DNA of 64,000 bases from a virus. Shown piece by piece: positions 21,167 through 39,227 of this stretch. Below the pieces are notes generated by a model, which saw only the letters and a list, made by a program, of their open reading frames with translations, made no database searches and had not been told where the DNA came from. The translations under genes were made by a program, and so were the position numbers. The stretch is taken from positions 1-64,000 of IMG/VR virus record IMGVR_UViG_3300032272_000002; one strand, 5' to 3'. How positions within the stretch are numbered: position 1 is the first letter of the stretch; each line of letters opens with the position of its first letter.

Positions 21167-22067
21167 GATCTCGGTCCCAGCTTCAAGCTTAGCAGGGTCT
21201 GGCACGTCGGGCAAGTCTTGATGCCCTTTTCCTGTGGCACTTGGTGCCCCTTGGGGCATTCGATAGCGATGACTACTCTCATGCTGTTATTATAACGCTC
21301 TCCGAGCGTTTGTCAACTCAAAAATCCCAACCAATGGCCAGAAATTTCTTCCAGAAACAGATTTTGAGACTCATGGAATATTTGCAGGCAACAATTTCAA
21401 TACCCACTTTTTCTATGCCAGTGTCTCGCCACCAGATCCAGGGAATTAGACGGTCGATTTTCATATCATATGTATAACCTTGAGCGTAGCGAAATGCAAG
21501 CTAGAAATAGAAGAAATATATACCACACATAGGACGGCGTGTACTCGCTCGTGTGCGAAGATCGCGGCGGCCAACGTGGCTAAGCCACGCACTAAAAACT
21601 ATCGTGCAGCATAGGGCCGTATGGCCCCGCTGGTCAGTCTGCTAGCGACGTTGAATCGCGACATTCTTTCCGGTCGCGTACGCTGCTTTGCCTAGGTCGG
21701 TGTTGTGGCCGGAAAGCCCGTACACTTGGCCCTTGTACTCGATGGCCCCAGGGAGCTTCCTAGGGTCGTTCTCGGGCATCGGAACGTCGATGTAGTCCCC
21801 GAAGAAACCCGTGTACTCGGCCAGAACGGGAATTGCGTTGGCGATTGCTTTTGCTTTCATGCTAGTATAATACCGCACTAGGCTAGAAATGCAAGGACAA
21901 AATAAAAAGGCCCGCCAGGAATATTTCACCTTGACGGGCCTACCGGCGGGATTGGGCGTTGACCCGTGTACCCTAACAGAGCCCGGCGTACGACCGCTCT
22001 CCGTGTATTGTACCGAACCCATAGGGCCGGGTGCTCCCCGCTTGCGTCGATACGTGCTCTCGTTGTT

Positions 22068-22230
22068 TGGAGGCTCTGGCAGGATTCGAACCCGCGACGG
22101 GTGGACATATGCTTCGTCAAGCGACCCACCCGATACCATCTTCGCAACCTACATCGTCAGGCTTGCGGCCCTCGTGACTTCTGATCCCCCAGTAGAGCTA
22201 TAGTTCCTGGGTTCGGTGCGATTCAGAGCC
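22068..22230 (-). ncRNA. 163-nt tRNA-like RNA (acceptor stem, T arm and CCA; non-tRNA interior)
   Basis: 5' GGCTCTG pairs with CAGAGCC-T-CCA; T arm GCGGG-TTCGAAT-CCTGC; TATTCT -10 box just upstream. Confidence 0.7.
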
Positions 22231-30075: not shown

Positions 30076-30354
30076 ATGACGTTGACTGAAATACAAAAAA
30101 GAAAAATGCATGCCATCATCAACAAATCAATGCAGATGCATGTAGACAGCATTCCGGATGGCAAGTGGAAGACCGCCAAACGAGAAGAGGTTGATATTGT
30201 AGATATGGAGAATGGCCATCTTCGTAATACAATGAATATGCTGAAACGCAAGAAGCTAGATAAGCACAGGAAATACGCCGAGCTAGAAGAAGAGGCGAAG
30301 GCTAGGGGATGGACGCTTGACGCGGACGAATTCTTACTTGAGGGCGGACTATGA
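30076..30354 (+). CDS. hypothetical protein with FLLEGGL tag variant
   Basis: Ends DEFLLEGGL*. Confidence 0.7.
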   Translation: MTLTEIQKRKMHAIINKSMQMHVDSIPDGKWKTAKREEVDIVDMENGHLRNTMNMLKRKKLDKHRKYAELEEEAKARGWTLDADEFLLEGGL

Positions 30355-30560
30355 ACCCTGACGATATTTACCAGCACAACATCAAATTCGACATCGAATA
30401 TCTAGCCAACAGCATGGGCAAGAGTGAGATCTGGGATGCGACGTTGAAAGAATACGAAAGAATCCTAAACGCTGCCCCTCGACAATCTGCCCAAATCTTT
30501 GTAGAAGAAGAACCAACCAACGTGCTCGATGAGCCGTTCGAGCTAGGTGGAGCACTATAA
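30351..30560 (+). CDS. hypothetical protein with FELGGAL tag
   Basis: Ends EPFELGGAL*. Confidence 0.75.
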   Translation: MNPDDIYQHNIKFDIEYLANSMGKSEIWDATLKEYERILNAAPRQSAQIFVEEEPTNVLDEPFELGGAL

Positions 30561-31222
30561 TGAAAATCATCGCCGTTAGCGACACGCACGAATCGTTCCA
30601 TGTTCCGGAGGATATGCCTGAGGGCGACGTGCTAGTTCATGCTGGTGATATTACCAACATGGGCTACAAGCACGCTATCAAGCAGTTTGCCGAGTGGCTC
30701 AAGAGTATCGAGCATAAGTACGATGAGATAGTCGTGATCGCAGGTAATCATGACTTTCTATTCGAAGAAAACCCCATGGAGGCTCAGGGTATACTACGTG
30801 AATATGGACCTCATAACCTGCATTATCTACAAGATGAATCGTTTGTCTACCATCATCTCGAAAGTGATAAAGAATATAAGTTCTATGGATCGCCGTGGAC
30901 GCCTCGGTTCCATGATTGGGCCTTCAATGTGAATCGTGGCGTTTTAATTGCTGCAAAGTGGCAGATGATCCCTGGCGATACTGATGTACTTATCACACAT
31001 GGCCCGCCCCATGGCATTCTGGATCCTGGACGTGGCGAAGAACACGTAGGCTGCGAAGAATTATTGAAGTGGATGCCGTCTGGTGTAAAAGCTCACATTT
31101 TCGGGCACTGTCACGGTGGCTATGGTAGAGTTATGCGTGCAAGCACTCTGCACGTCAACGCGGCGTGCTGCGACGAAATGCACGGACTGAATCGGTCACC
31201 GCAAATTATTTCAATCCCATGA
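30560..31222 (+). CDS. calcineurin-like metallophosphoesterase
   Basis: SDTH, HAGD, AGNHD, ITHGPP and FGHCH motifs. Confidence 0.92.
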   Translation: MKIIAVSDTHESFHVPEDMPEGDVLVHAGDITNMGYKHAIKQFAEWLKSIEHKYDEIVVIAGNHDFLFEENPMEAQGILREYGPHNLHYLQDESFVYHHLESDKEYKFYGSPWTPRFHDWAFNVNRGVLIAAKWQMIPGDTDVLITHGPPHGILDPGRGEEHVGCEELLKWMPSGVKAHIFGHCHGGYGRVMRASTLHVNAACCDEMHGLNRSPQIISIP

Positions 31223-31458
31223 AAGAGCACGAACAAAGATCTTGGTACGAAGGAACTCACTATGACCGCTGGCGTCGTAGCAAGGGAGACTTCATCAGTG
31301 TGGACAAGATGGCAAAATTCCATCTCATTAGTGCTGCCAAAAAGCTGGTCAGGCTGGACATGACCGATCTTGAGGTTTATGCTGGCATTTGTCAGCGTTT
31401 ACGCGACTCCCGCAAGGATGGCGAGATCTACGAGTTCGAGCTTGGCGGTGCCCTGTGA
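31219..31458 (+). CDS. hypothetical protein with FELGGAL tag
   Basis: Ends YEFELGGAL*. Confidence 0.75.
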   Translation: MKEHEQRSWYEGTHYDRWRRSKGDFISVDKMAKFHLISAAKKLVRLDMTDLEVYAGICQRLRDSRKDGEIYEFELGGAL

Positions 31459-35256: not shown

Positions 35257-35862
35257 GTGATGAATTCGCAAAACGATAAAGTAGACAGATATCTTGGCAG
35301 GGTGTACGAATCCCTGCCGGAAGCTGGCGTACAGTTTGCCCAGATTCCTTGGGCTCTCATATCACTGGCGACCTTTGGCTTGGGCATGTGGACACTGTAC
35401 GGAGGCGGCCCCGAAAGGGGGCTCACGTCGGCCCACGCACTACTCTGGGTTTTCATTGTGCTCGACGGCATCATGCTGTCTATTCTGGCACTAGCGTCCT
35501 TCGGGCACGCCTTTATCTCTGCAAAAGACCCGGTTGCGGGAGATAAGGTCCTATTTACTAGCGAATACAGGTCAAATTGGCTGAGTAAGTTTACTTCCTA
35601 CACTGATGCACCGTTGATGCTTGTTTTAGCAGTCCTGGCGTCCTGGCCAGTAGCTATCTTTGCCCTCTCTCTCCTGCTGGGTGCAGAGTGGATGGGAAAG
35701 TATATCCATAAGAACAACAAGCAGGAACGTCGAAATGAATTGGCAAAAATGGATGAGGCCGAGCTTCACGCACTCTTCGCTACTGATGAAGAGGAAGAGG
35801 CTGTTGGCAGGGATATTGACGATCTGTTGAAAGAATTTGAGAACTTTCAGGGGGATCTCTAA
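35257..35862 (+). CDS. multi-pass membrane protein
   Basis: Three to four hydrophobic helices and an acidic tail. Confidence 0.65.
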   Translation: MMNSQNDKVDRYLGRVYESLPEAGVQFAQIPWALISLATFGLGMWTLYGGGPERGLTSAHALLWVFIVLDGIMLSILALASFGHAFISAKDPVAGDKVLFTSEYRSNWLSKFTSYTDAPLMLVLAVLASWPVAIFALSLLLGAEWMGKYIHKNNKQERRNELAKMDEAELHALFATDEEEEAVGRDIDDLLKEFENFQGDL

Positions 35863-35879: not shown

Positions 35880-35908
35880 TTGGACGTTCAGGAGATTGAG
35901 TGTATAAT
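35880..35908 (+). promoter_or_regulatory. sigma70-type promoter of the large non-coding region
   Basis: TTGGAC-17nt-TATAAT. Confidence 0.7.
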
Positions 35909-35911
35909 ACC

Positions 35912-36977
35912 CTTGTCCCCGAAGTTGTCGGGAACGTCTGATACGGAAAGTGGCCTTCCAGTAGGGGAAACAGCGGCCACACCCAGGTAAGTGAATAATT
36001 TACAAGGGCACCCTACTGAACTCGGGTCCAATGCCTTCGGGTACGATCACGGAGCGAGTCAACTCCAAAAGCAAAGCCTTTCTCGGGCCAGTCTTTGACA
36101 ACTAGGTGAAGTAAAAACGACCCCGGCTTAGTGGCCGGGGTCACCGTACACTTCTGGCTTCGGCCAGGAGCTTGACCGTGTTCTCCGGTCATAAAACCCA
36201 CGTCCTTTAGTTCGATTAACCGGGGCTGGGCACCGAAAGGTGATAGTGAAAAGCCGGTATCAACTACGCCCATACCAACGGGAAATAGAGATACTTGGTC
36301 GGTGTGGGATAGATTTCCTGGCAGAAATCGAAACCCACCAGAGGTTCGCGTTATGAGATTCCCTGCCAGGGTAATAATTCTAGTGCGTTCAGAGTGGATT
36401 TGGTTACTTATCAGAACAACGGTTATGGTCATCTTTATGATAAAAGATCCTGGGAAACTGTCCGATAGGGCAGAAAGTAACACTTTGTGTAGCAGAAAGC
36501 GTCTCTGCTCCATCCTGAAAGGGAGGGAGTGTCCCGCGAGGGGTATTTTTGAGAATGTCTCAGGCATTCAAAGAGGTACGTGCGAGCCGAGGGTGTCGAT
36601 CAACACTCCGAAGCGATCACAGAATGATGCACAATGTATCGGCTGCTGTTGGCTGCCCGAGAGGGAAACGACAGTGACGAAGCCAGTGAAGAGACTAATC
36701 TCTCGTTCACAGACCGTTTCTACCGTGCTGGTGGGGCGGGATCACTGGTGTCCAGGGCGAGATCTTGTGATAGCCTGATTACGAACACTCCGTGTTGTAG
36801 CGGATAGTGAGGGTGGCGAAAACCTCATGATGAAGTGGAGTAACTCCCATAAAAACAGCTCCTAGTCTCGGAGAGACCGGGGCGGACCCCCGTAAGTTAT
36901 CCATGGTGGAGAAAGCGTCCTTATGAAGCTAAGGCCGAGGGAAGCGTTCTACGAAGCTAAGGTAACAGTCCACCATC
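35912..36977 (+). ncRNA. large structured ncRNA candidate (GOLLD/ROOL-like size and context)
   Basis: No credible ORF; many GNRA/UUCG hairpins; sits directly ahead of the tRNA cluster. Confidence 0.6.
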
Positions 36978-37343
36978 CAACGCGGGCAGATGAGTCCCCA
37001 ATATGTTCTTGCATAGCAAGCTGAACTAGTGGTCGATAGATAAAATAAGAAGTTTTTGGGGGATCGACCCGTTGCCCGCGTTACTTTCAGGTCTGGTGAT
37101 AGTAGAAATAGATCCTTCCGTTTGATCGCGGTGTTCTATCAGAGAAGTGAAGATAACCCAATAATGGGATCCATTGGACTCCAATCCTTTTCGTACCAGA
37201 CCTTCAATGCAAACGACACTCTCGCTACGAGGCCATTTGCTTTAAATGGGCAAGGATAGCGGTCTTCTTACTGGCAATCTTTGACTAGAAAGAGATAATA
37301 CTACATCCTCTATGGAGTAAGCTGATAGGTTATCAAAGCAAGT

Positions 37344-37427
37344 TGGCTCATCGTCTAAAAATAGGACGCCCCTTATTTTATTTATATACCCAAGGGGAAA
37401 TGCAGGTGGATAATCCTGTTGAGTCAG
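37344..37427 (+). tRNA. aberrant tRNA-Glu-like element with expanded AT-rich anticodon loop
   Basis: TGGCTCA/TGAGTCA acceptor, GTCT...GGAC D arm, CCCCT/AGGGG stem, GCAGG/CCTGT T stem; no CCA. Confidence 0.5.
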
Positions 37428-37441
37428 CGTTTTAGAACAAT

Positions 37442-37568
37442 GTCCCTGTAGTGTTAATGGCAATCGATAAATGGTGGTACTGAAAACATCGATTGGGCTC
37501 GCATGCAAGCCTTAGCACGCTTCCTCGATAGGGAAGTAGAGTAGGTTCGATTCCTGCCGGGGACGCCA
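37442..37568 (+). tRNA. tRNA (loop TCGATAG, anticodon GAT) with an insertion of about 50 nt in the D loop
   Basis: GTCCCTG/CGGGGAC acceptor, CTTCC/GGAAG anticodon stem, TTCGATT T loop, CCA. Confidence 0.7.
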
Positions 37569-37718
37569 TTCACGCCTCTGGACATAAACCAGAATCACTG
37601 TCGATTGGGATAAGACGCTGGTAGTAGACCAATCCGCCAGAGGCGTTTAAAATTGGCATGGAGAGTGGAGCTTAGCGGCTTGCCTTATTAGAAATAGTCA
37701 AAACTCTCCACCGAACAT

Positions 37719-37795
37719 GCCGTATTAGTGTTCAACGGATAGCACGCCACCTTGCCATGGTGGAAGTATCGGTTCGAATCCGATATATGGTTCCA
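37719..37795 (+). tRNA. tRNA-Gly(GCC)
   Basis: CCACC-TTGCCAT-GGTGG; CCA. Confidence 0.9.
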
Positions 37796-37889: not shown

Positions 37890-38234
37890 ATGAAGAAACT
37901 TATATTATGCCTCGCGATAATTCTCGGTAGCATTTGCTATCTGAGTTATACGCCTAAGCCTGAATTTGAGGCAAATATTCTTGTGGAATATACTGACTAC
38001 GAGCCTGAATTCTCGGTCCAAGCTATATTCAATCAAAATGAATCCTACTCAGTGGCCAACGTGAACGTGCGTGATGCTGACTCTGTATTAGCCTTTAGCT
38101 TCTTCAAGGTTGACGACGAGCCGTTGCCATGGGTCGTTGAAGCAATTAATATTGAAGATTCAAATGGTCTTTATCATTCGATGAAGATAACATTAGATAT
38201 CGTGGATAGTGAATTAGTCATTATAAAAAACTGA
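37890..38234 (+). CDS. exported or membrane-anchored protein
   Basis: MKKLILCLAIILG signal. Confidence 0.6.
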   Translation: MKKLILCLAIILGSICYLSYTPKPEFEANILVEYTDYEPEFSVQAIFNQNESYSVANVNVRDADSVLAFSFFKVDDEPLPWVVEAINIEDSNGLYHSMKITLDIVDSELVIIKN

Positions 38235-38559: not shown

Positions 38560-38633
38560 GGGCACGTAGCATTGTGGAATGCAGCCGCCTCTAAAACGGT
38601 AAGAAGCGAGTTTGACTCTCGTCGTGCCCTCCA
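38560..38633 (+). tRNA. amber suppressor tRNA (anticodon CTA)
   Basis: GGGCACG/CGTGCCC acceptor, GCAT/ATGC D stem, GCCGC-CTCTAAA-ACGGT, T-CCA. Confidence 0.8.
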
Positions 38634-38673
38634 TTTTCACTTGACAACCACAACCAGCGTGGTAGGGTGTAGT

Positions 38674-38952
38674 ATGCGTTACGTCACAATGGTTGGAGAT
38701 ATCATCTCCGAGCCTTTCGAATCCAAGCATGATAGACTGTGCTTCAAGCTGCGTGACCCCAATGGCTTAGATATTACCTGCTACGCCCCCTTTCAATTGG
38801 CACACCACGTCAGAGAAGGCGACTATATTATGTGCTATGGTAAGATCGTAACGACAGATGATGGTCGCATGATTGTGTCCTTGGAAGCAATACACGAAGA
38901 AGATAGACCAGTGCCCGAGCCCAACACGTTCGAGTTAGGTGGAGCCCTGTGA
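38674..38952 (+). CDS. OB-fold-like small protein with FELGGAL tag
   Basis: Beta-strand pattern (VREGDYIMCYGKI); ends NTFELGGAL*. Confidence 0.7.
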   Translation: MRYVTMVGDIISEPFESKHDRLCFKLRDPNGLDITCYAPFQLAHHVREGDYIMCYGKIVTTDDGRMIVSLEAIHEEDRPVPEPNTFELGGAL

Positions 38953-39227
38953 CAATTGGATATGTAGAAGGGCCAGTAATGTCAATAAGTTTTGGAATTG
39001 ATTATGTTGAATTTGACGTTCGTGCCATTGGGCAATTTAGCAACGCAGCTAAGCGAGTACGCTGTATCGCCCCCATTAATTTTAAAAGCGTTATAAAATT
39101 GAACAATGAAGTCAGCATCAGCGGCACAGTAGAACATGAGGACACGCCGAGCGGAGTTTTCTCACGTATTAGAGTCACCCGCGTTGAACGAGTGACTAAT
39201 GAATTTCTGCTCAGCGGAGCATTGTAG
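38949..39227 (+). CDS. OB-fold-like small protein with FLLSGAL tag
   Basis: EVSISGTVE...RIRVTRVE; ends NEFLLSGAL*. Confidence 0.7.
   Translation: MTIGYVEGPVMSISFGIDYVEFDVRAIGQFSNAAKRVRCIAPINFKSVIKLNNEVSISGTVEHEDTPSGVFSRIRVTRVERVTNEFLLSGAL

Follow-up and report, generated by a model that had tools for sequence, protein, structure and literature searches.

A conserved multi-pseudoknot RNA structure ahead of the tRNA genes of an uncultured phage

What is encoded in a stretch that lacks credible genes and leads into the tRNA genes of an otherwise gene-dense phage? The question arises from the IMG/VR virus record IMGVR_UViG_3300032272_000002 (169.7 kb), of which the first 64 kb were analysed and are referred to here as the window; loci and genomes used for comparison carry L and G numbers. 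The record encodes a terminase and uses the standard genetic code. Close cultured relatives were not found, the nearest terminase being about 26% identical, and a capsid-like protein with identities of 62–93% defines a family of uncultured phages with genomes of about 150–180 kb. The window contains 28 tRNA genes, 27 of which lie from position 37719 onward. One tRNA with a CUA anticodon is encoded at 38560–38633, though TAG serves as a stop codon in 13 of 91 long open reading frames (ORFs), and CUA-anticodon tRNAs also occur in L029, L032, L033, L207 and G012.

The gene-free stretch begins behind a gene that stops at 35862 and is ended by the tRNA genes, of which the first canonical one starts at 37719; the next credible gene starts at 37890. 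An earlier reading, made from the letters of this DNA only, had placed a promoter-driven, hairpin-dense non-coding region at 35912–36977 and suggested a GOLLD-like or new giant RNA of about 1.06 kb. These limits had to be redrawn: the stretch without genes extends as far as position 37719, and only positions 36173–36776 belong to the conserved RNA, the 1.06 kb being a composite of leader, core and variable tail rather than a single RNA. The proposal of a new giant RNA holds for the core of about 604 nt, with its strong covariation, and not for the whole 1.06 kb. According to the best reading, the core would be the gene of a stable non-coding RNA of about 600 nt, belonging to an uncatalogued family and located in a modular stable-RNA operon. 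Apart from tmRNA, RNase P, introns and the ribosome, very few RNAs of such size and complexity are known from bacteria or phages. The functions of two of them, GOLLD and ROOL, are still open.

Homologues and inheritance of the core

Folding of single sequences yielded z-scores between −3.1 and +1.5 in 150-nt windows, −1.8 for the core and −1.4 to −3.4 for its homologues. All six stems listed in the sequence-only reading were recovered at the positions given there, four of them (at 36119, 36154, 36865 and 36903) outside the conserved core. The hairpin density that it had emphasized is borne out by the number of tetraloop hairpins (four compared with 0.96 expected; 5/300 shuffles), but density by itself is weak evidence and the folding z-scores are modest. 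As single-sequence folding is only mildly above chance, the case rests on homologues and covariation.

Syntenic loci were reached via relatives of a neighbouring DUF2201 protein and of a 201-aa protein encoded upstream, and motif scans added two. Six distinct core sequences are available, those of the window, L207 (90% identical to the window), L028 (83%), L029 (77%), L042/L033 (61%) and L043/L053 (56%). The core of the window (36173–36776, plus strand, about 30 helices) corresponds to 598–635 nt in the five homologues, the host phages of which are related and have genomes of about 150–180 kb. Down to 56% identity the core is always whole, with its parts in order and with no tRNA or cassette inserted, and the sequences around it are all exchanged between the homologue loci. 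It is thus one inherited block in six phage sequences, and this block is always located just 3′ of a promoter and a boxA-type motif and heads a run of tRNAs or tRNA-like units.

Two ORFs overlap the region, one of 158 aa (36302–36778, plus strand) and one of 184 aa (36013–36567, minus strand), and together with the modest folding z-scores they could point to a small protein gene or to neutral intergenic DNA. Neither ORF gave a match in a PHROG search, indels between the homologues are mostly frameshifting, and non-triplet indels break both frames in every homologue, such that no common ORF is left. A conserved protein-coding signal was looked for and is absent, in agreement with the earlier statement that the region lacks a credible ORF. 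In view of these indels and the strong covariation described below, a protein gene or neutral DNA is extremely improbable.

The core family is rare. A covariance model of our own, run over 55 further related virus records, retrieved only G001 and G002, and five DNA patterns drawn from the core returned only L042 and L043/L053 from viral contigs or metagenomes and nothing from prokaryote genomes; a pattern drawn from the variable tail produced chance matches only and was discarded. Blastn against cultured phages left the core without any match, and tRNAs were all that Rfam searches reported for the window, for the region itself and for the loci of the homologues. Partial copies of the core were absent from eight whole related genomes and from about 80 other loci. 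In the capsid tree, G003 is the closest relative; it has the head of the operon but not the core. To explain the distribution of the core, this tree requires three changes, and well-supported branches force at least two of them. Because of this patchy distribution, the core is an accessory gene, which is absent from close relatives. A description of the family was not found in the literature; the candidate list of the survey of viral structured RNAs by Fremin (2023) lay outside this comparison.

Secondary structure of the core

RNAalifold proposed 169 pairs, 73 of them with double changes. A hand-built structure comprises 156 pairs in 30 helices, with 95.5% of cells paired and 70 double-change pairs; none of 500 shuffles reached these values and slid alignments fell to 39–44% paired, although these statistics are inflated as the structure was derived from the same six sequences, four of which are 77–90% identical. 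Covariation among homologues, by which the sequence-only reading had suggested that its claim be checked, is accordingly strong in the core.

Crossing helices were revealed by an exhaustive helix scan. In PK1 (36181–36250), the loop of P1 (36181–85) pairs with 36246–50 (29/30 cells paired, double changes in three of five pairs), and in PK2 (36274–36299) an apical loop (36274–77) pairs with a bulge at 36296–99 (24/24 cells, two double changes). A kissing interaction, KL1 (36318–36369), connects the hairpin loops 36318–23 and 36364–69 (36/36 cells, two double changes); both closing stems covary, and the kiss could form within or between molecules. PK3 (36449–36564) joins 36449–55 to the hairpin loop 36558–64 (42/42 cells, two double changes) and crosses P10 (36403–09/36475–81) as well as P13 (36485–91/36628–34). 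In the terminal PK4 (36707–36770), 36707–12 pairs with the last hairpin's loop at 36765–70 in 36/36 cells; this element is invariant, hence without covariation support. A strict test was passed by PK2, KL1 and PK3; in column-shuffled alignments it was passed on average 0.03 times and never more than once. All these elements lie on the plus strand. The core is longer than 500 nt, non-coding and built from many covarying helices and pseudoknots, as is characteristic of large ornate phage non-coding RNAs. A non-coding, multi-pseudoknot structure is conserved here, and we have hardly any doubt that it belongs to a real structured RNA.

Is this RNA a single molecule? The core might instead be divided into two or three smaller RNAs (36173–36390, 36403–36634 and 36646–36776) that are independent but inherited together, resembling the swappable cassettes in its neighbourhood. 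Indeed, no covarying helix was found that connects the 5′ part (36173–36390) with the rest, and the only link between the middle and the 3′ part is a 4-bp candidate (36556–59/36676–79) with one double change. The 5′ part is also less conserved, a single-sequence nhmmer search finding it only in the three closest homologues, and the units next to the core are freely exchanged. However, the six homologues keep all parts, in order and uninterrupted, no part was found alone, and GOLLD, which is one RNA, likewise has 5′ and 3′ domains that fold separately. A row of smaller RNAs is unlikely in our view, and the core is quite probably one molecule of about 600 nt.

Promoter, boxA-type motif and tRNA-like units

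The promoter postulated in the sequence-only reading was confirmed on the plus strand (35880–35908): TTGGAC (35880–35885) is followed after 17 nt by TATAAT (35903–35908), in the manner of sigma70-type promoters. It is one of three 10/12 sites within 9 kb and heads the putative stable-RNA/tRNA operon, and its position is conserved, with a −10 box at the equivalent place in L207, L028, L029, L032, L036, L042 and L043. Host RNA polymerase would start near 35915. The first element of the leader, module A (35950–36016, plus strand), is a 6-bp stem (35950–55/35975–80), the loop of which forms a pseudoknot with 36011–16. In six loci, 98.6% of its cells are paired and two of 12 pairs show a double change. 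Module A is independent of the core, as it is present in the core-less L032 and L036 and absent from the core-bearing G001 and G002.

Further downstream lies a boxA-type antitermination motif, TCTTTGACAA (36092–36101, plus strand), which by its consensus and position is a putative NusB–S10 site. It is found 77–179 nt 5′ of the core in 6/6 homologues and 34–191 nt past the −10 box. The boxA consensus has been published (PMC13753749), and TCTTTGACAA is intermediate between the forms of E. coli and B. subtilis. At least 120 bacterial contigs carry the same 10-mer 82–139 nt 5′ of the start of the 16S gene; among those listed, three also have a copy at about the 16S–23S spacer, and among 80 loci listed, 80 of 85 copies occupy the 16S-leader position. 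The phage motif does not have the G at −2 that is present in 67 of the 80 rRNA leaders listed. TCTTTGACAA also precedes tRNAs in the core-less G003, G012 and G024; some relatives have no boxA-type motif near their tRNAs, and many further copies of the 10-mer in these phage genomes are chance matches within ORFs.

Between the motif and the core, two hairpins (36119–36167, plus strand), corresponding to the first two stems of the sequence-only reading, are retained as hairpins in L207, L028 and L029; in L042 and L043, tRNA-like units stand in their place. A second boxA-like motif, TCTTTGACT (37278–37286, plus strand), is located on the 3′ side of another element, module C, and 5′ of tRNA-like units and tRNAs; it is conserved in L207, L028 and, with one change, L029. 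Module C itself (about 85 nt, 37208–37292) is near-identical in L028 and L029, immediately precedes this second motif and had no match in Rfam. From the promoter to the tRNAs, no plus-strand terminator of note was found. This arrangement resembles the leader of an rrn operon, in which promoter, hairpins and UCUUUGACAA precede a long stable RNA and a second copy follows further downstream (PMC13753749). The phage operon differs in that it contains tRNAs and a non-coding RNA rather than rRNA and in that the G at −2 is missing. A boxA consensus soon after a promoter and a hairpin and ahead of a presumed stable RNA is the layout of an rrn boxA element, and the operon is probably driven by boxA. 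The motif would recruit the antitermination factors of the host's rRNA operons, so that a long untranslated transcript would continue into the tRNAs. Such a layout suggests how phages may carry kilobases of untranslated RNA past host termination.

Two core-less loci, L032 (12590–13230) and L322 (G012, from 41166 onward), have other long, ORF-free and hairpin-rich stretches behind a similar promoter and a boxA-like motif, and these are possibly further uncatalogued RNAs.

On its 3′ side, the core is followed by a variable tail of about 190 nt (36783–36975, plus strand) that ends with CCA and recurs only in L207; in L028, its place is taken by a tRNA-like unit. The tail includes a stem-closed unit (36903–36976) with two copies of (T/C)GAAGCTAAGG, which stay fixed while the surrounding stems change in L207 and possibly represent twin T-loop-like motifs. 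On the 5′ side, L029, L042 and L043 have a tRNA-like unit whose CCA is followed after 5–6 nt by the core. Such a unit does not precede the core in the window, L207 and L028, and 5′ processing must therefore differ in these three. The look-alikes that flank the core in the homologues (L029:7667–7741, L042:2490–2640, just before the core in L043, and L028:5655–5733) have anticodon loops of 4, 5 or 8 nt and CCA ends, and may serve as processing handles or nuclease decoys. We propose that host tRNA-processing nucleases would act on these CCA-ended units and release the core as a stable RNA.

Within the window, two tRNA-shaped units were missed by ARAGORN. In one (37342–37428), the anticodon loop is expanded and A/T-rich and the T-loop reads TGGATAAT; the other (37442–37568) ends with CCA and has about 65 nt inserted into its D loop. 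L028 and L029 keep both units, and L207 keeps the former. End-paired cassettes of about 70–115 nt are distributed patchily: that at 36979–37082 recurs in L207 and L028, that at 37652–37721 in G010 (near 21934–21996), and those at 37089–37203 and 37572–37646 were found in the window only.

Relation to known RNAs, self-association and possible role

None of the models named in the sequence-only reading (GOLLD, ROOL, RNase P, group I and group II introns) matched the region at E ≤ 10. The model for the 3′ domain of GOLLD (RF02032) found nothing at this threshold in G000 or in 25 relatives, apart from noise at E 8.5 in G001, while scoring 216 bits with Bongo and 165 bits with phiCbK as controls. 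The ROOL model (RF03087) matched neither the region nor the homologues (pMP118 control, 130 bits), and the OLE model (RF01071) matched none of three genomes at E ≤ 10, while in the control search, made in a bacterial class, it matched 38 of 81 genomes. Conversely, our own model and profile of the core did not find any known GOLLD, ROOL or OLE, and neither GOLLD nor ROOL was found as a replacement in relatives without the core.

What had been called GOLLD-like is valid as an analogy and not as membership. As with GOLLD, the core is a giant phage RNA that adjoins or is interleaved with tRNAs, its 5′ part is less conserved than its 3′ part and a highly conserved terminal hairpin loop pairs into the core; it differs in leaving the 416-nt 3′-domain model unmatched, in lacking an internal variable tRNA linker and in its length (600 vs. 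800+ nt). With ROOL it shares a size of about 600 nt, location near phage tRNA islands, pseudoknots, kissing loops, the lack of a known protein partner and an accessory nature, and some ROOL rows likewise start near a UCUUUGA(A/C)AA motif, whereas the helix order and the (uncultured) phage family are different. OLE is also of similar length (616-position model) and shares a GAUC/GGCC switch in a palindromic loop, its L9.3; it is, however, a chromosomal gene of Bacillota and not phage-encoded, and no dedicated neighbouring protein tracks the core. The core is akin to GOLLD, ROOL and OLE in broad kind, unrelated to them in sequence and fold, and not a member of any of these families.

Could a highly diverged ROOL or GOLLD have been missed by the Rfam models? 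The equal size class and the tRNA-island context would fit, the 5′ end of the ROOL of L. salivarius also contains GA(C/T)GAAGC(C/T)AGTG, a tetraloop hairpin is followed by AAAGUAA, and the last hairpin ends with AGCC as in GOLLD. On the other hand, no score at E ≤ 10 was obtained in either direction, the order of motifs differs, and the core lacks all signatures of the GOLLD 3′ domain as well as a closing helix like ROOL P1, exhaustive helix scans having revealed no long helix between its 5′ and 3′ ends. We regard a diverged relative as very improbable.

Little credence can likewise be given to a catalytic RNA, whether an intron derivative without an ORF or a large ribozyme of a new kind that would process the tRNA operon. 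A compact multi-pseudoknot core with invariant junctions would suit such an RNA, and GTTCACAG and (C/T)TGGGAAA resemble what we take to be group I R and P elements, a lead that was dropped as unsupported. The residues after GTTCACAG, the would-be P7, vary, and the models for group I introns (RF00028; E ≤ 10) and RNase P type A (RF00010) gave no match in the presence of positive controls. Group II introns were not found with Rfam at E ≤ 10, and simple regular expressions detected neither a domain V pattern nor the core patterns of hammerhead, twister and pistol ribozymes, though diverged forms could escape such patterns. Furthermore, core-less relatives carry a different sequence at the site and not ligated exons. 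Resemblances to motifs of 23S rRNA were also dropped as unsupported.

A third possibility is a monomeric RNA in an OLE-like ribonucleoprotein with a phage or host protein as partner, for example the 201-aa hydrophobic protein. The core equals OLE in size (616-position model), many of its unpaired residues are invariant and could be sites of protein contact, and the gene for the 201-aa protein is located upstream in syntenic position in the window, L207, L028 and L029. Yet a gene of equal size precedes the operon at the equal position in the core-less L032 and L036, and co-occurrence analysis revealed no ORF of at least 45 aa in G000 that is common and specific to the three genomes with the RNA. 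For the 201-aa protein, the ESM Atlas offered no assignment. A protein-dependent monomer seems unlikely, although a partner encoded by the host is conceivable.

In this co-occurrence test, a candidate partner ORF (21642–22139, minus strand) was rejected as an artefact of two unrelated part-matches. The spurious ORF was caused by a tRNA-mimic-like RNA at 21905–22190 (minus strand) that has a T arm, a CCA end and a promoter before it.

A clue to the architecture of the core is provided by a 6-nt hairpin loop (36597–36602, plus strand) with a self-complementary centre, a candidate for a symmetric intermolecular kiss. Five homologues have GATC in this loop and L029 has GGCC, and a change from one palindrome to another points to intermolecular pairing because adjacent bases cannot pair within one strand. 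Kretsch et al. took the same GGCC/GAUC switch as support for a symmetric dimer kiss at L9.3 of OLE, and this signature supports intermolecular kisses in OLE and GOLLD (PMC12286853). Among the non-nested columns, no palindromic 4-mer other than that of the loop is variable (null P = 0.029, for a single switch event). In L029, an alternative register offers a longer stem with a 3-nt loop, and owing to this and to the single event the switch is a lead only. Copies of the core may pair with each other, as in the cage-forming GOLLD and ROOL, the latter of which forms nanocages in cryo-EM (PMC12286853, PMC12990946). We consider the chances that the core is a homo-oligomer to be evenly balanced.

Taken together, we slightly favour the reading that the core is a processed, self-associating RNA scaffold that represents a new giant ornate phage RNA family and is cut from the tRNA-operon transcript. 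It would adopt a compact fold via PK1–PK4 and form a dimer or cage of RNA only, through contacts of the palindromic 36597 loop and possibly of KL1. More tentative is the full picture of a further independent giant phage RNA family that forms an RNA-only oligomer or cage of new architecture through the palindromic loop and a second loop–loop kiss, and that derives from a phage tRNA operon borrowing host rRNA antitermination. As to function, one may speculate that during infection the RNA acts as a scaffold or sink of an accessory kind and not as an enzyme, and would bind or shield host or phage molecules involved in conflicts over tRNA and translation; such a role is doubtful on present grounds. 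An unrelated family in the niche of GOLLD and ROOL offers an independent test of cage formation as a common theme, and if the oligomer or cage reading were true, cage-forming RNAs would have arisen repeatedly in phage tRNA islands. Although the family is rare, with six sequences, and stems from an uncultured phage, it provides predictions that are ready for mutation (the palindromic loop, a 6-bp kiss and three covarying pseudoknots) and a direct target for cryo-EM.

Two minor observations were made on the way. In phiCbK, a permuted tmRNA match (L086:31–234, 55 bits, over the cut-off) lies upstream of GOLLD and is unannotated in the record. In the window, the small ORFs at 30351–30560, 31165–31458, 38572–38952 and 38949–39227 share a C-terminal peptide, F/L-E/L-L-G/S-G-A-L, and other small ORFs end with -GAL or -GGL.
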